Shown in pieces: positions 10,367-58,297 of a DNA stretch of 64,000 bases. Position numbers and translations under genes: made by a program. The notes under the pieces were generated by a model. That model worked only from the letters and a program-made list of their open reading frames with translations. It did no database searches and was not told the origin of the DNA. Origin of the DNA: Bacilli bacterium (GTDB lineage Bacteria > Bacillota_I > Bacilli_A > RFN20 > CAG-826); contig JAGAYY010000025.1 in assembly GCA_017940265.1 (NCBI GenBank), positions 711 through 64,710 of the forward strand. Reading direction: 5' to 3'. Every line of letters begins with the position of its first letter. Position 1 is the stretch's first letter.

Positions 10367-10379
10367 CTCATGAATAAGG
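10367..10379 (-). promoter_or_regulatory. CCTTATW-NN-TGNN box (ccttattcatgag), leftward
   Basis: Lies 28 nt upstream of ATG 10339 in a divergent intergenic region. Confidence 0.4.
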
Positions 10380-10388
10380 AAATCAACT

Positions 10389-10401
10389 CCTTATATATGT
10401 G
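10389..10401 (+). promoter_or_regulatory. CCTTATW-NN-TGTW box (ccttatatatgtg), rightward
   Basis: The GTG start of ORF 10399 forms the last 3 nt of the box. Confidence 0.4.
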
Positions 10402-10689
10402 ATTGACTATATTTTATATATAAGTACAGAGAATGATGTTTATGCATTATTAATAGGTGATATAATTATAGCAACACCAAGATTTACTAGGAAAAAGAAA
10501 ATTCATAATATTTCTAGGTTATTTTGCATTCATATGGTTGTTATTAGTAAGGATATACCAGAAAATATGAAAGAAATAGCCTCAGGGAAAATTAAGAGAT
10601 CTGATATTTATAATATTATCCGACGTAAGTTTAATCCGGATGAACCAGCTTATAAGATGTGGACAGATTATATAAATACTATTACATAA
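10399..10689 (+). CDS. hypothetical small protein (GTG start)
   Basis: 96-aa ORF, the first in a rightward series of small basic ORFs. Confidence 0.4.
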   Translation: MIDYILYISTENDVYALLIGDIIIATPRFTRKKKIHNISRLFCIHMVVISKDIPENMKEIASGKIKRSDIYNIIRRKFNPDEPAYKMWTDYINTIT

Positions 10690-11716: not shown

Positions 11717-11760
11717 ATTGACAAAACACGTATCAGACAGCCTAAGATCCTTATCACTGA

Positions 11761-11803: not shown

Positions 11804-11946
11804 AACTGGACTCTGCAAATCGACAAAACGCGCTCTAGAAAGGCAGAGAACCTTATACCCGAAAGAGCTTAGGTGTTACTATTAAATTCTGGAATAAAAT
11901 AGCCACTAAGTCTCTTTAATAATTGTATAAACTAAATATTAAAAGA

Positions 11947-25210: not shown

Positions 25211-27784
25211 ATGGAAGACTTAAAATTTACAGTTTCAGATGAACTTAAAGTTATACTGAGAAATGCTAATCAAATGGCAAAATCAAATAGCGATAAGGAA
25301 CTGACTGTCGAACTTATTACGTATCTTATCCTCAAACGATATATAAACGAGGAGGGAGACCTAGAGAGTAATATTATTAAGGGTGTTCTAGATGATTACA
25401 AAGATTCAGCAAAGAAAGAAATGCTTGAAGCTTGTAAGAAAGAATATGAGAGAACAGCCAAGAAAACATCATTATTCTCAAGATTTGAAAATTATACATT
25501 CTCGGAAGGATTAGAGGAAACCTTCGAACGTACTAATACAATAATGTCTATTAAAAATGAAATAGAAAGTACGGAGGGTAATATTATAACTACCGAGCAT
25601 CTCTTAGTCTACGGAATTCTACATCATAAATGTAAATTGGTAGACCTCCTTAGTGGAACTTATCAATTTAATCATATAAGATTCATGGCTCAGCAAGTAT
25701 GTGAGTCAATCTTTAGTGAACCAGAACTTAAGGAGAAGAGAATAGAAACTCCCCCAGAAAAAGAGGATACGACTGAGGAAGATGATGATAAGTTTGAAAG
25801 AGCCGCCGAAGGACAAGATGCAATCTCCGTCCGAAAACATGATCCCAATTCGAAAACTCCATATCTAGATCAATTTGGCCTTGATATGACACAAAAGGCA
25901 AAAGATGGAGGATATGACCCAGTAATCGGTAGAGATAAGGAGATTTCACAAGTCATCGAGGTATTATGTTGTCGAAAGAAAAATAATGCAGCTCTTCTTG
26001 GTGAGGCTGGTGTCGGTAAAAGTGCACTAGTAGAAGGTCTTGCTCAGAAAATAGCGAACGATGATGTACCTATGGAGCTTAGAGGAAAACAAATATTCTC
26101 GGTTTCCACCACAGATCTTCAGGCAGGTACAATCTATAGAGGACAACTTGAGGAAAGAATTCAGAAGTTATGTGAGGAGGTCAGAGATAATCGAGATATC
26201 ATTCTCTATATCGACGAATTCCATCAAGCTGTTTCCGATAGTTCCTCTAATATTGCCCAAATGATGAAACCTTCTTTAGCACGTGGAGAACTCAATGCGA
26301 TTGTTTCTACGACTGTATCTGAATATAGAAGATATGTTGAGAAAGATGCCGCTCTTAAAAGAAGATTTGAACCTATCTACTTAGAAGAGCCTAACACCGA
26401 GGAAACTGTTAAGATCTTGGAAGGATTAGCTCCTGGATATGCTAAATTCCACCATGTTCGTTTTGGTGAAGGGGTTCTTGAAAAGTGTGTGGAATGGTCT
26501 GGACGTTATATAACAGATAGACAATTCCCAGATAAAGCTATTGGAATTATGGATATGGCTGCTTCGGTAACTAAACTCCAAAATCCATTAGATTATGAGA
26601 AGAGAACCGAACTACAGGAAGCTATTGATAAACTTAACTCACAAGCTGACTCCGCCATTGAGAATTCAGAATTTGAAAGGGCGTCTAAGATCAGGGATGC
26701 TAGAATTAAAATAGAATCCGAACTTAAAGATCTCATTCAGGCTCAAGAAGAGAACCAAGAGGGATGGCCAGAAGTTACTATTAATGAAGTTTCCTCAGTA
26801 ATCTCTAAATTATCTGGAGTTCCTATTGACAAAATAATGAACTCTGATATGGGTAAGGTTAGAGAAATGAAAGCTACCTTAGGGAAACAAGTAATTGGAC
26901 AGGATAAAGCTATTGAAGAATTATCTGTAGCCCTTCAGAGAAATATCTTAGGTTTACGTGATCCGAAAAAACCTATCGCATCATTCCTTTTAGTGGGACC
27001 GACTGGAGTAGGTAAAAGCTTGGTCTCTAAGGTTCTCGCCCAAGAATTTTTTGGATCAGATAACTCTTTGGTTACTATTGCTTGTTCTGAATATATGCAA
27101 GAATGGGCAGAGTCTAAGTTATTGGGCTCGGCTCCCGGTTATGTTGGATTCGAAAATACAGAACCGCGCCTCTATGTTCTTAAGCGTCGGCCTTTCTGTG
27201 TTCTCTTAATTGATGAAATTGAGAAATCACACAGTAACTTATATAATATTTGGTTGAATATGCTTGAAGAAGGAGAAGTAACCTTGAGTAGCGGCGAGAA
27301 AGTTAGCTGTAGAGATTGTATTATTATCTTCACAGGTAATGTCGGAACTAAATCTCTCGAACTTAAGTCTGGGGATCTTGGATTTGGCACTAAGAGTAAA
27401 GAAGATAAGAAAAAGACCGACGTTGCTACAGTGATGAAAGAAGTTAAAAAAGAATTTCGGCCCGAGTTTTTAAATAGACTTTCTGGAATTATAGTATTTA
27501 ATCCCTTGGGGAACGAGGAACTTCTGCAGATCTTCGACTTAGAATTAGGTAAGCTTCAGGAACGACTCTCTGGTAAATATAAGATCGGAGTTAGTAAAAA
27601 GCTCAAATCTTGGATAGTGGATAAAGCTGAACCGCAATATGGAGCTAGATCCTTACAGAGATTAATTGTCGAGTATGTAGAACAAGAAATCTGTAAAAAA
27701 CTACTTGATGAAGATCCTGGCGACAAGAAAAAAGTAAGTCTTGACCTTGGAAAAGATGAGGTAATTAAAGTTAAGTTTTCATGA
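25211..27784 (+). CDS. Clp/Hsp100 double-ring AAA+ unfoldase (ClpC/ClpB-like)
   Basis: NBD1 has GEAGVGKSALVEGLA and ILYIDEFH. NBD2 has GPTGVGKSLVSKVLA and VLLIDEIEK. A UVR-like linker (FERASKIRDARIKIE) and an LGF tripeptide (GDLGFG) in NBD2 are present. Confidence 0.8.
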   Translation: MEDLKFTVSDELKVILRNANQMAKSNSDKELTVELITYLILKRYINEEGDLESNIIKGVLDDYKDSAKKEMLEACKKEYERTAKKTSLFSRFENYTFSEGLEETFERTNTIMSIKNEIESTEGNIITTEHLLVYGILHHKCKLVDLLSGTYQFNHIRFMAQQVCESIFSEPELKEKRIETPPEKEDTTEEDDDKFERAAEGQDAISVRKHDPNSKTPYLDQFGLDMTQKAKDGGYDPVIGRDKEISQVIEVLCCRKKNNAALLGEAGVGKSALVEGLAQKIANDDVPMELRGKQIFSVSTTDLQAGTIYRGQLEERIQKLCEEVRDNRDIILYIDEFHQAVSDSSSNIAQMMKPSLARGELNAIVSTTVSEYRRYVEKDAALKRRFEPIYLEEPNTEETVKILEGLAPGYAKFHHVRFGEGVLEKCVEWSGRYITDRQFPDKAIGIMDMAASVTKLQNPLDYEKRTELQEAIDKLNSQADSAIENSEFERASKIRDARIKIESELKDLIQAQEENQEGWPEVTINEVSSVISKLSGVPIDKIMNSDMGKVREMKATLGKQVIGQDKAIEELSVALQRNILGLRDPKKPIASFLLVGPTGVGKSLVSKVLAQEFFGSDNSLVTIACSEYMQEWAESKLLGSAPGYVGFENTEPRLYVLKRRPFCVLLIDEIEKSHSNLYNIWLNMLEEGEVTLSSGEKVSCRDCIIIFTGNVGTKSLELKSGDLGFGTKSKEDKKKTDVATVMKEVKKEFRPEFLNRLSGIIVFNPLGNEELLQIFDLELGKLQERLSGKYKIGVSKKLKSWIVDKAEPQYGARSLQRLIVEYVEQEICKKLLDEDPGDKKKVSLDLGKDEVIKVKFS

Positions 27785-28437
27785 AGATAGAGTTTTTACC
27801 TGACAAATATAGGTGTAATTCTAATAACGGAATTACCCTACATAAGAAAGAAGGACTAATCTCGGATCTATCTAGGGTTATTGATTTCGAACACTCTACC
27901 TATCCTAAGAAATGGGTAGATGAAGGAGAGAAATACGTAGGACATGATCAGACAGTAACAGACTTTCTAGGTGATAGACGTGTACTAGAACCAGGTGATA
28001 TGTTTATTCATGCTGGTCAAGTTCTAGCAGTAAATGATCCGGAAACTCTAATCCTTTGTGTTTCGGAGACTGGTGGATTTGCACTTCAGAGATTTGTTAA
28101 TGAAGTACTAGCCGCTGAACTTGAACTCCTAGATACAGACTTGGTTGATACGGAAGTTAAGGTTGAACCGGTTGTAGGGAATGAAGAAAAACCCACCGGA
28201 GAAATAGCCATCCCGTATTATAAAATGAAAGCTTGGCGCGAAAAATTAGACCGCCCAGAAAAAGCTACCTACCCGATTAAGGCAACTATAAACTGCCCTG
28301 ATCTTCTCCTTCCCGTCAGTATTTGGATTGGGGACTGGGAGGCTTGGTACATGGAAGAAGAAATAGATGATCCAGATGTTGCCAAGGATATGGTAGGTAA
28401 AGTTCTGGGATGGACCTACAAAAATGGACTGGTGTAA
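27781..28437 (+). CDS. hypothetical protein
   Basis: 218-aa ORF with an ATGA overlap with the clp-like gene. Confidence 0.5.
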   Translation: MKIEFLPDKYRCNSNNGITLHKKEGLISDLSRVIDFEHSTYPKKWVDEGEKYVGHDQTVTDFLGDRRVLEPGDMFIHAGQVLAVNDPETLILCVSETGGFALQRFVNEVLAAELELLDTDLVDTEVKVEPVVGNEEKPTGEIAIPYYKMKAWREKLDRPEKATYPIKATINCPDLLLPVSIWIGDWEAWYMEEEIDDPDVAKDMVGKVLGWTYKNGLV

Positions 28438-28459
28438 AAACCGGTCCTTATTTTTTTTG
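28426..28459 (+). terminator. rho-independent-type terminator
   Basis: Stem ggactggt/accggtcc followed by a T-run. Confidence 0.6.
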
Positions 28460-28553
28460 TAATTAAGAGCTTCTGGGGACTAATTCCAAGATAAAGTATA
28501 AAATCATATATTATGTTATCTATGATAACTAGGTATATGATTTTTTTATTTCC

Positions 28554-28740
28554 TCTTGGGTCGCCCACCTAGCCAGTCGCTTCGCTCCCGCCCGACCCAA
28601 GACTTTACTTCAGAAAACCTGAAGTAAAGGATATCACAAGACCATAATACTATATTCAAGGTGAGGGAGGGAACCGACCTCTCTTGAATAAGTCTGAGCC
28701 TTAGTGAGGGCTTTGTCCCGAACGTCTAAGGTGAAGACTA
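28554..28740. other. GC-rich, highly structured intergenic island (candidate ncRNA or cis-element)
   Basis: Perfect 10-bp stems are present: tcttgggtcg/cgacccaaga (28554-28602) and tttacttcag/ctgaagtaaa (28604-28628). A 7-bp stem attcaag/cttgaat (28654-28689) follows, with further pairings to about 28740. No ORF covers the region. Confidence 0.4.
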
Positions 28741-28845
28741 GATAAAAATTGCAGGGACATTATATAAGAGATTACCTCAGATTAGAAAAATAAAATTGCA
28801 GTTTCACGCTTCAGAGAAGCTCAAATCCTTACTGATGAATAAGAG

Positions 28846-30993
28846 ATGGTTCCCCAGAAACTCTCAATTACAGTTTCTGTGTCTGGAATCATGAAACGAC
28901 TAAAATATATGAGTATGAAAAAATTTGTTGTTAGCGTGCCAAAAGGGGTGCGTTATATTGGAGAGTGGAAAGAGTATAGTTTGAGGAATTATGCCTTTCC
29001 TCATATTTTGAACAAAACCTTAACGGGATGTGGATATACTGAATATTGTATAACCAATGACCAGGACCTCATTGTGTGTAGTCCTCGTCGTATCCTCTTA
29101 GAAAATAAAGAGTCTCAACATCAGGGGGAGGTATTCTATGCTAGGAGTGGAATCTATGGGCCCCTAGGATATGACAGAGATTTAACTGTCCCTAAGAAAT
29201 TTACTGGTCCGAGATTTATTAGTTCGCAGATGAGAGCTGAGATGGAAGCCAAGGAGAAAAGAAAGGCTGAAGAAAGGGCTAAAGCTATTCTGGAATTTAA
29301 GAATAGTATATTTCAGTATTATCAAGAGTGTCGAGCTAGGGGAGTACCAGTTAAGATCTTGGTTACTTATGATTCCTTCCGTCACGTTAAGGAAGCATTA
29401 GGTCTTCATATTGAGGAATTTCAGGTAGTTATCGACGAGTTCCAATCAGTTCTGGTGGATGCTAAATTTAAATCGGAAACAGAGTTAGACTTTCTTAATC
29501 AGCTCCTAGGTCTTCAGAAGGTATGTTTTGTATCTGCTACGCCCTTGATGGATAAATACCTTGATAGACTAGATGAATTTAAGGATCTACCATACTATGA
29601 GCTTGACTGGAAAACTGAAGATCCTGGAAGAGTTATTAGTCCGGAAATTAAGGTTAAAACATATGAAGGTAGTTTAACGGCCGAAATCACTAAAGTTATA
29701 GATAAATACCAAAAAGGAAAGTATGAAGTCTGGATGGTTAATGATGAAGAAAAAGGTCACCACGAAATTCAGTCCCGGGAAGCTGTCATTTATGTTAACT
29801 CGGTAAAAACTATTTGTAGTGTAATTCGACGTAATAGATTAACTTTGGAGAATACTAATGTCCTGTGTGCGAGAACTACCGAGAACACAAAAAAGATCAG
29901 GGAAGCATTTAATGACTCGTATAGAAAGCAGGAATTAGCGCATCGAGTATCTACGAAGGATGATCCTATTGGTAGTGTTCCTAGGAGAGGTGAGGTGCAT
30001 AAGATGTTTACTTTATGTACCAGAACAGTATACCTAGGAGCGGACTTTTATTCAACCAATGCACAGACCTTCGTATTTTCCGATGCGAATATTGACTGCT
30101 TAAGTGTTGATGTTAGTACAGACTTAGAACAAATCTTAGGGAGGCAGAGACTAGACATTAACCCCTGGAAAAATACTGCTAATGTTTGGATTAAGCTTTC
30201 GACAGCCCTACTCACTAAGGCAGATTTCGATAAGGAATTAGAGAGAAAAGTTAAGACTACGTATGATCTTCTTGGTTCATATGATTATTCACCTACCGAT
30301 ATGAGACATTCATTGGCCGATAAATATAGGAAAGATGCTATTAGTTCTGCCTATAAAGATGATTATGTAGCCGTGAATAGACATGCTGGATCTGATCTTT
30401 TGCCAGTATTCAATAACTTAATGTTGATTGCTGATGAGAGAACTTATGAAATTCAGCAAATTGACTATAAGGATAGATTTAGTGTATATAGTACTATGAA
30501 GTCTGAAGGATTTATAGTCGAGAGCTCTGATATTGTGGCTTCAGTAGATGAGTTTAAATGCCTAACTAGATTTACTGATAGAATGATGTTAGTTGTAGAT
30601 AAAGAGAAGACGCTATCAAGGGAGGACTACATAACCTTCTTGGGAAGAATTCCATCAGAGTATAGAAACTATATAGAAGCCTTAGGGACTGATGAAATCA
30701 AAGCTTCGGGATATCAGAGATCTAAGATATTTGAAAGGTGGAGTAAACTTATGAATATAGACTCCAAGGAAGATCTTGTTAGATTCAGAGTTTATACAGA
30801 ATTTGAAATAGGTTTTAATTACACAAAAGCTCAAATTAAAAACAAACTTCGAGAAATTTATACTGAGATTGGATATCGAGGTACACCTAAAGCTATAGAT
30901 ATAGAAAAATGGTTTGAAACCAGGGCAACTATGTTTACAAATAAAGAAACAGGTAAAAGAGAAGCTGGTTTTGAAATAATTAAACAGTTATGA
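28846..30993 (+). CDS. SF2 (DEAD/DExH-like) helicase. The start is uncertain: alternative ATGs lie at 28891 (MKRLKY...), 28909 and 28915.
   Basis: Motifs seen: VVIDEFQS (motif II), FVSATP (motif III), QILGRQRL (motif VI), and a degenerate motif I (LTGCGYT). Confidence 0.6.
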   Translation: MVPQKLSITVSVSGIMKRLKYMSMKKFVVSVPKGVRYIGEWKEYSLRNYAFPHILNKTLTGCGYTEYCITNDQDLIVCSPRRILLENKESQHQGEVFYARSGIYGPLGYDRDLTVPKKFTGPRFISSQMRAEMEAKEKRKAEERAKAILEFKNSIFQYYQECRARGVPVKILVTYDSFRHVKEALGLHIEEFQVVIDEFQSVLVDAKFKSETELDFLNQLLGLQKVCFVSATPLMDKYLDRLDEFKDLPYYELDWKTEDPGRVISPEIKVKTYEGSLTAEITKVIDKYQKGKYEVWMVNDEEKGHHEIQSREAVIYVNSVKTICSVIRRNRLTLENTNVLCARTTENTKKIREAFNDSYRKQELAHRVSTKDDPIGSVPRRGEVHKMFTLCTRTVYLGADFYSTNAQTFVFSDANIDCLSVDVSTDLEQILGRQRLDINPWKNTANVWIKLSTALLTKADFDKELERKVKTTYDLLGSYDYSPTDMRHSLADKYRKDAISSAYKDDYVAVNRHAGSDLLPVFNNLMLIADERTYEIQQIDYKDRFSVYSTMKSEGFIVESSDIVASVDEFKCLTRFTDRMMLVVDKEKTLSREDYITFLGRIPSEYRNYIEALGTDEIKASGYQRSKIFERWSKLMNIDSKEDLVRFRVYTEFEIGFNYTKAQIKNKLREIYTEIGYRGTPKAIDIEKWFETRATMFTNKETGKREAGFEIIKQL
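30550..30993 (+). repeat. direct repeat copy 1 (3' end of the helicase gene)
   Basis: Similar at DNA and protein level to 31518-31955. The final 27 nt (gg[t/c]tttgaaataattaaacagttatga) match at 26 of 27 positions. Confidence 0.8.
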
Positions 30994-31955
30994 TTTATTT
31001 AATACGTGTTAAATACGAAAAAGAGACTTTACTTAAGATAGGATATACTGAAGACTCTCGTAAGAAACTTAGATATTCTAATTATAAAATGCATAATCCT
31101 TTGTATGAATTATTGAATGAAATTCCAGAGGGAGATTTACAGGATGAAACAAACTTACATTACAAGTTTCGTCATCTACTGAAATACGGAAGAGAATGGT
31201 TTAGTGAAAGTAAGGAAATATATGAATTCTTTAAATCTCACACTACTAAAGAGTCTCTACAGGAGCTCAAGCCTTATTTTCCTTCGTTTATTAGATCAAA
31301 GCAACTTCCAATAGTTAATCCTTATGTAAATGCTATTGTTAGAGTTCTAGGAAATAACATGACTCCGGTAGATATTAATAACCTAAGGGAGGATCTTATT
31401 GACTGTGTTCCGGAATTAATCGACGGTTATATACAAAGACTGTTTCCTAATGAGTTTAATGAGATTATTAAGGCATATAAAGACTTAACTGCCAGTAATA
31501 GTACTCCTGAACTGGATGAGTTTAATAGTCTCGCTAGATTTGATGATAGAATGATGTTAGTTGTAGATAAAGAAAAGATATTATCTAGAGAAGACTACAT
31601 AACTTTTTTGACCAGAATTCCTGCTGAATATAGAAATTATGTGGAAACTCTTGGAACAGATGAAATTAGGGCGGCTAGCTATCAAAGATCTAAGATATTT
31701 GAAAGATGGAGAAAATTAGTTAGTATTGATTCAGCCGAAGATTTAGTTCGGATGAGAGTTTATACAGAATTTGAAGTAGGAAAAAGATATTCTAATCTTC
31801 AGACAAAACAAATACTGAATGAAATATATCAAGAATTAGAATATCAAAAAACACCCAAAGCTACTGATCTAGAAAATTATTTTGAAGTTAAACATTTAAA
31901 AGTAACTATAGACGGTAATAGGGTTAATGGCTTTGAAATAATTAAACAGTTATGA
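30990..31955 (+). CDS. T5orf172 (GIY-YIG superfamily) domain protein fused to a copy of the helicase C-terminal domain
   Basis: The N-terminus reads MIYLIRV...LLKIGYTEDSRKKLRYSNY...LHYKFRH...GREWF. The C-terminal ~145 aa are collinear with the helicase C-terminus. Confidence 0.65.
   Translation: MIYLIRVKYEKETLLKIGYTEDSRKKLRYSNYKMHNPLYELLNEIPEGDLQDETNLHYKFRHLLKYGREWFSESKEIYEFFKSHTTKESLQELKPYFPSFIRSKQLPIVNPYVNAIVRVLGNNMTPVDINNLREDLIDCVPELIDGYIQRLFPNEFNEIIKAYKDLTASNSTPELDEFNSLARFDDRMMLVVDKEKILSREDYITFLTRIPAEYRNYVETLGTDEIRAASYQRSKIFERWRKLVSIDSAEDLVRMRVYTEFEVGKRYSNLQTKQILNEIYQELEYQKTPKATDLENYFEVKHLKVTIDGNRVNGFEIIKQL
31518..31955 (+). repeat. direct repeat copy 2
   Basis: See 30550-30993. Confidence 0.8.
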
Positions 31956-34948: not shown

Positions 34949-35050
34949 TGAAACGCTCTTCTTAAGCCGTGAGAACCTTATCCCTGAGAGATTCCCTTAG
35001 TGCCCTGGGTATTAGGGGAACAATAAAATAAATTTTATATTATAATAATT

Positions 35051-46890: not shown

Positions 46891-46921
46891 AGAATTAGAG
46901 TTTAGGCTCTAATTCTTTTTC
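46891..46921 (+). terminator. rho-independent-type terminator
   Basis: 10-bp stem agaattagag/ctctaattct followed by TTTTT. Confidence 0.65.
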
Positions 46922-46981
46922 ACCTCTCAGACAGCTTGATGTCCTTATTATTGGGGAGGAAATAATCCTCCTCAATTAAAT

Positions 46982-56481: not shown

Positions 56482-57333
56482 TTAATAAGGATTTAATATT
56501 TCAATTATCTCAAGTAATCTATCTGCCTTAATAATATCTCCCGAAAGTTCTGGAAATTCTTGTAATAATATTTCCGATGTGGGAGAATCTAATTCTAAGG
56601 CTGGTTCGATGCACGGAAGAATATCAAAATTTTCTTCTTTAAAATTTTGAATTGCTATTTCAGTAAACTTGGGAACTTCAATTCTATGTGTTTTTGCTGA
56701 ATTCTTGAGTTGCAGACCACCAGAATTATTCTTGGCATAATCATTTTTCCTTTGTGTTTTAATACCAAAAACTTTTTCTACGTATCTATCTCTCGCTTTA
56801 TCCGCCTGTCTTTTATGAAGATGGGATTTATCATCCAATTCAATAATCCAACCAATATCTGGGATGAATATATCTGCACTTATATAACTTCTATACCAAT
56901 ATTCATCACTAGTCTCACCTTCTTCGGCTAGATAGGTTCTCCAAAGATCAAGGTTTGTTATTGGAATAATAAATTCTTGGATACAAAGAAATCCCGGACA
57001 GGCTTCTCTAATATGTTTATAGAAAAGTTTTTGATTTTCTGATGATCTAGCCCTCTCTAATAATGAATTCTTTTTTCTACCTTGTCTATTATCACATAGA
57101 TTAATCCACTCATGTTTTGGGTTTGAAGTTATTCCTTCTAGATATCGGCGATTCTTTAGGTATAAGGGGCATTTTACTTTTCCAACATCACTATAACTAA
57201 AAATCCAATTATTGGAACCACCTCTTTTAGTGATTCCATCAAACACAATTTTTTCAAAATTAACATCCATCATCAATAAGGAATACTTCGCTGATGGGAC
57301 GTGTTTTAAGAAAATAAAAAAAAGATTTCCCAT
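56482..57333 (-). CDS. putative PD-(D/E)xK nuclease-fold protein (DUF559/Vsr-like core)
   Basis: SADIFIPDIGWIIELDDKSH matches the aDf...iiElDGxxH pattern. Confidence 0.4.
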   Translation of the reverse strand: MGNLFFIFLKHVPSAKYSLLMMDVNFEKIVFDGITKRGGSNNWIFSYSDVGKVKCPLYLKNRRYLEGITSNPKHEWINLCDNRQGRKKNSLLERARSSENQKLFYKHIREACPGFLCIQEFIIPITNLDLWRTYLAEEGETSDEYWYRSYISADIFIPDIGWIIELDDKSHLHKRQADKARDRYVEKVFGIKTQRKNDYAKNNSGGLQLKNSAKTHRIEVPKFTEIAIQNFKEENFDILPCIEPALELDSPTSEILLQEFPELSGDIIKADRLLEIIEILNPY

Positions 57334-58227: not shown

Positions 58228-58297
58228 TCAATAATCTAGGATTCGAACCTAGGACCTCTAAATTTCTCTAGCACTCTACCATCTGAGCTAATTATTT
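58228..58297 (-). ncRNA. tRNA-like RNA lacking an anticodon loop (GAAA tetraloop in its place)
   Basis: The minus strand reads aaataat ta gctc agatggta gagt g ctaga GAAA tttag aggtc ctagg ttcgaat cctag attattg a. The D-arm, variable loop and T-arm are canonical. The anticodon stem is capped by only 4 nt. Confidence 0.55.

Follow-up and report, generated by a model that had tools for sequence, protein, structure and literature searches.

Iteron-type origins, such as P1 oriR with RepA, the F origin with RepE and that of pSC101, lie next to an autoregulated initiator gene. The locus described here, a 415-bp non-coding module in the genome of a jumbo phage, resembles them in being placed directly upstream of the gene for what would be its own specific binding protein, in combining an AT-rich, easily melted segment with repeated short motifs, and in having an inverted repeat that overlaps the putative promoter and transcription start of the linked gene, which would allow autorepression. 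The iteron origins use winged-helix Rep proteins, whereas the protein linked to the module is SF2-helicase-like; unlike them, the module is dominated by GC-rich covarying hairpins and is present as nine units in one genome.

The herpes simplex virus 1 (HSV-1) origins oriS and oriL offer a second comparison, and the mechanism of their binding protein, UL9, includes hairpin forms of the unwound origin. In both UL9 and the phage protein, an SF2 helicase core precedes a distinct C-terminal module, which in UL9 binds DNA sequence-specifically; in both systems inverted sequences (recognition sequences in HSV-1) flank an AT-rich palindromic center, and the HSV-1 protein is among the fold matches of the phage protein. 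Unlike UL9, the phage protein has no Herpes_ori_bp match, its fold similarity is generic and its P-loop lysine is missing. Moreover, the inverted arms lie 372 bp apart in the module but tens of base pairs apart in the HSV-1 origins, and each phage site has its own paralogue, whereas a single protein serves all HSV-1 origins.

Dispersed origins that each lie beside a diverged initiator paralogue, with inverted binding elements flanking an AT-rich unwinding element, are found in Sulfolobus (oriC1 to oriC3, with Orc1-1, Orc1-3 and WhiP). There, the initiators are AAA+ Orc1/Cdc6 proteins and the origins are experimentally proven, while here the proteins are SF2-like and the nine units, in a virus, are putative. 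The R-loop origins oriF and oriG of phage T4 share with the module their multiplicity in a large phage genome and the pairing of a promoter with an unwinding element, but the T4 promoter transcribes into the unwinding element, and the recognized promoter of the module points away from the GC-rich island. Finally, the leaders of R1 repA (CopT) and pT181 repC are hairpin-rich non-coding regions directly before an initiator-type gene; they lie downstream of the promoter and act as RNA, whereas the island lies upstream of a promoter-like box. Neither Rfam nor the literature searched contained anything comparable, and the search for work on multi-origin jumbo phages or on this helicase family returned nothing relevant.

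Nine modules in a circular jumbo-phage genome

The window, that is, the whole 64,000-nt stretch that was analyzed, corresponds to positions 711 to 64710 of a 376,162-bp contig (C18) binned in a 1.7-Mb metagenome-assembled genome. C18 is a 376-kb jumbo-phage genome, with a phage-like gene content that includes a ClpB-type ATPase, ThyX, a DnaB-like helicase and a family A polymerase, and it is circular, since its ends overlap by 141 bp. Five sequence-related copies of the island were detected, all on C18 and none elsewhere in the 1.7-Mb assembly, each directly preceding a paralogous open reading frame (ORF) of 682 to 718 amino acids (aa). Searches with tblastn located nine such helicase-like paralogues in total, at 29.6, 73.9, 110.2, 149.9, 185.3, 231.1, 273.3, 299.6 and 346.0 kb of C18, and the remaining four are preceded by a second sequence type of the module with the same architecture, so that a module stands before every one of the nine. 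The four type-2 modules (around 73.6, 150.2, 299.3 and 345.7 kb) have in common an invariant GGCCGCTRCGCGGAAGGCTAAAGCC.

The paralogues are separated by gaps of 26 to 60 kb. For nine random points on a circle, the probability that the smallest gap reaches the observed 26.3 kb is (1 - 9 x 26.3/376)^8, or about 4e-4. Similar spacing was found in two relatives, one of 367 kb with seven helicase-like genes and a smallest gap of 38.1 kb (P of about 4e-4), and one of 371 kb with five such genes and a smallest gap of 54.5 kb (P of about 5e-3). With respect to orientation, the C18 genes read +,+,+,-,+,-,-,+,+, and the seven genes of the 367-kb genome from IMG/VR (G001) alternate strictly as -,+,-,+,-,+,-, with spacings of 38 to 68 kb. 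The GC skew of C18 follows gene orientation; its minima fall at just two or three of the nine sites, and no change of sign occurs at 28.5 kb of the window or at most of the other copies. The lack of a strand-bias switch at the site counts against reading it as an origin.

Anatomy of the module

The island is the hairpin-rich core of a conserved 415-bp non-coding module at 28458 to 28872. Its elements, with the genes and signals that flank it, are as follows (window positions, with the strand in brackets for stranded features):

28426-28457 (+): intrinsic terminator (terminator scan) belonging to the gene upstream, 27781-28437; an 8-bp stem and then a T-run, ending 1 nt before the left arm
28458-28479: left arm of the long-range inverted repeat P0, TGTAATTAAGAGCTTCTGGGGA
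28491-28550: AT-rich, easily melted segment, the sixth least stable 60-mer in the 64-kb window, 3.2 SD from the mean
28500-28544: imperfect AT-rich palindrome of 45 nt, AAAATCATATA..GTTATCTATGATAAC..TATATGATTTT
28554-28602: P1 hairpin, a 10-bp GC-rich stem TCTTGGGTCG/CGACCCAAGA (28554-28563 with 28593-28602) and a 29-nt pyrimidine-rich loop CCCACCTAGCC...
28603-28629: P2 hairpin, an 11-bp stem CTTTACTTCAG/CTGAAGTAAAG (28603-28613 with 28619-28629) and a 5-nt loop
28629-28636: conserved GGATATCA after P2
28654-28689: P3 hairpin, ATTCAAG/CTTGAAT (7 bp), enclosing the purine-rich tract GGTGAGGGAGGGAACCGA
28691-28739: P4 hairpin, CCTTAG/CTAAGG (28699-28704 with 28726-28731) and an outer AGTCT/AGACT stem, the loop holding the conserved GTGAGGGCTTTGTCCCGAACG
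28745-28801: AT-rich spacer with two direct repeats of AAAATTGCAG (28745-28754 and 28792-28801)
28802-28832 (+): promoter-like box TTTCACGCTTCAGAGAAGCTCAAATCCTTAC, an instance of the bipartite motif WWWCRC-N19-CCTTAY
28851-28872: right arm of P0, TCCCCAGAAACTCTCAATTACA, 18 nt after the box and around the inferred transcription start
28915-30993 (+): SF2-helicase-like gene, 692 aa from its inferred start
30990-31955 (+): downstream nuclease-like gene with a weak N-terminal T5orf172/GIY-YIG-like match

The structural observations of the initial annotation held throughout. An ORF scan returned no frame of at least 60 aa between 28438 and 28845, and the gap extends to 477 nt because the alignment of the paralogues sets the true start of the downstream gene at ATG 28915. 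The GC content is 50% at 28550 to 28649 versus 22% at 28450 to 28549 and about 36% for the contig. The two perfect helices reported there (P1 and P2), the 7-bp helix (P3), the ccttag/ctaagg pairing within P4 and the pair of direct repeats were all recovered at the positions listed above. Folded as RNA, the segment from 28540 to 28760 reaches a minimum free energy of -74 kcal/mol (z = -4.76), and none of 200 shuffled sequences was as stable. The island could not be assigned to a riboswitch or ribozyme class by eye, in line with an Rfam scan that had no match to it at gathering thresholds, nor anything at E <= 10 inside 28554 to 28760 under a permissive threshold. Just two matches, both of tRNA type and both outside the island, were obtained by Rfam in the window. 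A tRNA score of 49 bits was given by Rfam on the minus strand at 58228 to 58297, where ARAGORN makes no call.

The 21-nt motif of P0 is present at 28458 to 28478 (-) and 28852 to 28872 (+), with two differences and 372 nt between the arms, and these are its only two sites in 64 kb, where none is expected. Among paralogous modules the arm sequences vary, yet they match inside each module; for instance, the arms of the 110-kb copy, ACAGTTGAGAGCTTCT, agree at 16 of 16 positions. The spacer behaves similarly, as sister modules have at the same position other, copy-specific direct repeats (25 nt twice; 39 nt twice). Candidate initiator sites are the inverted arms, which have the pattern of paired binding sites, and the direct repeats; both are specific to each copy and lie beside a gene with a divergent C-terminal module. 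The segment at 28491 to 28550 has the character of the AT-rich DNA unwinding element of a replication origin, being the DNA that melts most readily in its surroundings and standing beside very stable hairpins. The palindrome inside it (28500-28544) occurs as its exact reverse complement in the module at 109.8 kb of C18 (109776-109835), with the flanks unflipped, which points to an inversion between the 11-bp arms or to a function that does not depend on orientation. In the second module type, the apparent homologue of P4 is the CCTTAATGCC hairpin. The stems of P4 (28699-28731) and of the type-2 hairpins read CCTTAG or CCTTAATG on both strands, like the CCTTAY of the box.

Conservation, covariation and strand symmetry

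The islands of the paralogous modules have a mean column identity of 84%, with two copies near-identical, whereas the adjacent proteins are 46 to 67% identical. The island is thus far better conserved than the genes beside it, which implies that strong constraint or gene conversion acts on a core that a common factor would read. Equivalent modules occur in relatives with about 30 to 50% protein identity. These were compared by architecture, not by sequence, because an nhmmer profile of the five copies gave marginal matches only against the loci of about 175 relatives. The loop of P1 (CCCACCT...CACTTCGTTCG) is kept in two relatives (L135 and L110) on a wholly different stem, and P2 is swapped in relatives for a different perfect 12-bp hairpin at the same place. 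The complementarity between the purine tract and the P1 loop is found in the sister copies and in relatives as well, and distant relatives have long-range inverted repeats of 16 to 40 nt at equivalent positions, with unrelated sequences.

Covariation of the helices, which had been hoped for when they were first noticed, was found in P1 and P2 across the five copies. All 70 of 70 cells are Watson-Crick, with five compensated pairs and no G-U; compensatory double changes affect 4 of the 10 pairs of P1. In the MAFFT alignment of the copies, P2 was misaligned. The covariation demonstrates that pairing matters; it does not show that the paired strand is RNA. The island folds about equally well on both strands, with z scores of -4.76 (sense) and -2.47 (antisense) under RNA parameters and of -4.11 and -3.63 under DNA parameters. 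Tolerance of G-U and a bias toward the sense strand would be the mark of RNA-type covariation, and we compared G.T with A.C mismatches. The ratio was 18:0 in the terminator stems of upstream genes versus about 28:21 in module-core stems (hand classification of the hairpin listing), 7:7 in the conserved helices, 21:27 in the long-range arms and 43:42 in the aligned clusters; the last three ratios are without strand bias but noisy, and the wobble counts are small and not independent, as related sequences are included. The reversed-sequence control for this comparison was invalid because reversal preserves inverted repeats, and a group I intron used as a positive control contained too few long stems. 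Taken as a whole, the island is a real, conserved and functional element.

A promoter-like motif downstream of the island

WWWCRC-N19-CCTTAY has seven matches in the window against 0.22 expected. Besides the box of the module, these are 10374-10404 (-), 11724-11754, 11826-11856, 34951-34981, 46918-46948 and 57276-57306 (-). All but one lie between genes, upstream of an ORF start in the same orientation; the exception, at 57276-57306 (-), overlaps the 5' end of the ORF 56482-57333. Contig-wide, about 40 intergenic instances share a common 31-nt consensus, laid out as (A/T)3-C-R-C, 19 nt containing cttc.GAAGgc, and CCTTAY, and nearly all of them point at the next gene. A regular-expression search recognized the box upstream of eight of the nine helicase-like genes, and the ninth (h5) has the variant AAATGC...CCTTAA. 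Because it is found genome-wide and not limited to the helicase-like genes, the motif is most likely a phage promoter, an assignment based on motif enrichment and position. A sigma-70 promoter scan of the sense strand gave nothing convincing. A second class of sites was also observed, in which CCTTAT stands exactly 10 to 13 nt before ATG (TTTTCCTTATATATGTTATG), often straight after the T-run of a terminator. Regardless of the function of the module, this genome-wide motif is of practical use for annotating transcription units in the uncultured phages of this group.

Of the representative modules, 38 had a recognized box, and in every one of these the GC-richest stretch lies upstream of the box. 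Flanked by a terminator immediately upstream and by the promoter-like box downstream, the island is probably not part of the helicase mRNA. The suggestion that it is a 5' untranslated region (UTR) element of the helicase gene is consequently disfavored: by the motif-based promoter at 28802-28832 and the terminator at 28426-28457, the island does not lie between the transcription start and the start codon, where a leader or riboswitch would. Nevertheless, other promoter classes or terminator read-through could transcribe it. In 8 of 12 modules, the right arm begins 6 to 18 nt after the box, which would be an operator-like position. The arm motif is similar to the spacer found in this promoter class, and in h5 the left arm is itself the spacer of the promoter-like element of a divergent gene. 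An inverted box at the left arm was present in 1 of 32 modules.

The helicase-like protein and its nuclease-like neighbor

The downstream gene had been described as a helicase, and this description stands as far as motifs and predicted fold are concerned, without a sequence match in Pfam, NCBIfam or the PDB; the Pfam search returned nothing even at E <= 5, including Herpes_ori_bp (PF02399). More than 4,500 homologues were collected, none of them annotated, on contigs of up to about 400 kb. Motif I reads TGCGYTE and is devoid of the P-loop lysine, and DEFQS, SATP and QILGRQRL are conserved; in the homologue alignments TGCG-x-T, D-x-x-QS, SATP and Q-I-x-GRQR are invariant, with Tyr or Phe in place of the lysine. 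The AlphaFold model (pLDDT 82) has generic SF2 matches (WRN, Brr2, Hel308 and DEAD-box proteins), among which the HSV-1 origin-binding protein ranks 14th, no better than WRN, Brr2 or Hel308. Thus, neither sequence nor fold places the protein among the UL9-type origin-binding helicases (PF02399).

The C-terminal module of the protein is divergent, and a fold search with it (263 aa, model pLDDT 88) returned no significant match. A copy of it is present in the next gene. The product of 30990-31955 has an N-terminal match to PF10544 (T5orf172) at E = 0.0046, under the curated cut-off, and over its C-terminal 156 aa it shares 64% identity with the adjacent helicase-like protein, as against 31 to 37% with the other paralogues. 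The same pattern is seen in Odn of phage ICP1, a T5orf172 nuclease with a copied origin-binding domain (PMC8263062), in that the nuclease-like protein carries the cognate C-terminal module of its neighbor; by this analogy, there is a hint that the shared C-terminal module binds DNA. A second nuclease-like gene with such a layout follows the 110-kb paralogue.

Two further observations concern the family at large. In many relatives (L009, L010, L011, L016, L035, L040, L045-L049, L117 and L121, among others) the match to the gene spans about 3.0 kb instead of about 2.0 kb, and the additional 1 kb suggests an intron, an intein or an inserted gene in the coding sequence. Additionally, the relatives L088-L102 were binned as Bacillales, Bacilli and Mycoplasmatota (39 to 45% identity) or as Bacteroidales/Prevotella (about 30%), so either the family would span phages of very different hosts or binning would be unreliable for these contigs.

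Possible functions of the module

We tentatively favor, at somewhat below even chances, the reading of the module as an origin-like cis element that acts at the DNA level and is linked to an initiator-like helicase gene, which is probably autoregulated. Among the four functions offered by the initial annotation, a replication or packaging cis-site is therefore the best supported one, through circumstantial evidence: the even spacing, the linkage to an initiator-like gene and the easily melted palindrome. Under this proposal, the module would be one of nine replication-origin-like sites of the 376-kb circular jumbo phage. The helicase-like protein would bind both arms through its divergent C-terminal module, and, since the right arm overlaps the transcription start, the same binding would also repress its own gene, in the manner of plasmid Rep proteins. 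Once bound, the protein would open the AT-rich palindrome at the expense of ATP, and the GC-rich hairpins would then form on the unwound strands. Because the conserved hairpin loops resemble one another between modules far more closely than the adjacent genes do, they may be recognized by a shared factor, for example the DnaB-type helicase or primase machinery of the phage. Several points count against this proposal apart from the GC skew: the C-terminal module lacks a fold match, the helicase-like protein is SF2 in a generic sense, with the HSV-1 protein in 14th place, and the long-range pairings, of arms 372 nt apart and of the P1 loop with a purine tract, are hard to form in duplex DNA and more natural in RNA.

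The latter point leads to the principal alternative, that the module encodes a structured RNA, either a stand-alone non-coding RNA or a leader reached by read-through or from an unrecognized upstream promoter. We regard this as a serious rival, even if a doubtful one. Such an RNA would comprise P1 to P4, a pseudoknot between the P1 loop and the purine tract, and the arms as a closing helix, and it would either act as a regulator of the helicase-like protein or join it in a ribonucleoprotein, given that RNA helicases are common among SF2 relatives and that DEAD-box RNA helicases are among the fold matches. It would explain the very stable sense-strand fold (z = -4.76), the stems that covary while the loops stay conserved, and the recurrence in distant relatives, with different sequences, of the arm and loop-to-purine-tract complementarities, which would form most readily in a permanently single-stranded molecule; moreover, two sister copies have no terminator between the upstream gene and the module. 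Against it stand the promoter-like box downstream of the island and the terminator directly upstream, the divergent ORF that is the nearest upstream neighbor in about 38% of relatives, the absence of G-U pairs in P1 and P2, and module cores without the sense-strand wobble bias that terminators in the same regions exhibit (18:0). The antisense strand folds about as well, Rfam has no match, and the even spacing of nine copies has no obvious RNA rationale. The stable non-coding RNA of the initial annotation is thus weakened by the missing Rfam match, by the lack of a promoter of the recognized class upstream, by the pairs without G-U and by the similar folding of the two strands, but it keeps its place as a competitor. 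If it were correct, the modules would represent a large, undescribed family of structured RNAs specific to jumbo phages.

Transcription control by itself would account for other features of the module, and we consider it unlikely. An autoregulator, probably the helicase-like protein, would use the arms as operators, with about 400 bp looped out between them, and the hairpins would serve either as regulatory DNA upstream or, in hairpin form, as sites for the phage RNA polymerase. The position of the right arm at the inferred transcription start, the likeness of the arm motif to the spacer of the promoter class, the left arm of h5 within the promoter-like spacer of the divergent gene and the CCTTA-like sequence on both strands of P4 and the type-2 hairpins would all fit. 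Such a function leaves unexplained the even spacing around the genome and the restriction of the module to one gene family, and the inverted box at the left arm in just 1 of 32 modules also counts against it. An origin in a miniature mobile element with terminal inverted repeats, or in a fragment from a GC-richer genome, is by far the least probable reading. A 21-nt inverted repeat does flank a 372-nt non-coding insert, and the local GC is raised; but the element keeps one position and orientation, always ahead of the same gene family, its arms vary from copy to copy, no copies exist elsewhere in the 1.7-Mb assembly, and equivalent modules extend across relatives whose proteins are about 30 to 50% identical. 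Neither the island nor an 8-kb region had a BLAST match among phage records, and two chance matches, in GC-rich phages, were all that IMG/VR yielded in an exact-pattern scan for the P1 loop. A transposon or MITE with terminal inverted repeats was accordingly rejected, as the copies all precede one gene family and their arms are copy-specific, and the idea of a foreign fragment was refuted by the five related copies on C18, always before a paralogous gene, and by the equivalents in relatives.

Implications for the replication of large phages

The origin-like reading can be extended to the whole group, in a bolder form that we think possible but rather doubtful: a clade of 350- to 400-kb phages would replicate from sequence-defined origins, five to nine in number and evenly spaced. 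A diverged, lysine-less SF2 "initiator helicase" paralogue would be dedicated to each origin and recognize its private arms, while a common replisome would read the shared hairpin core. If true, such a multi-origin, initiator-paralogue system would be the first to be described from a bacterial virus, with a new class of origin-binding protein. Should the modules be origins, these phages would replicate in a way hitherto known from archaea and eukaryotes, with many evenly spaced origins that are each served by an initiator paralogue, and they would provide a tractable system for the diversification of origin specificity. Furthermore, as the helicase-like family keeps every helicase motif except the P-loop lysine, it would represent a new kind of origin-binding motor.
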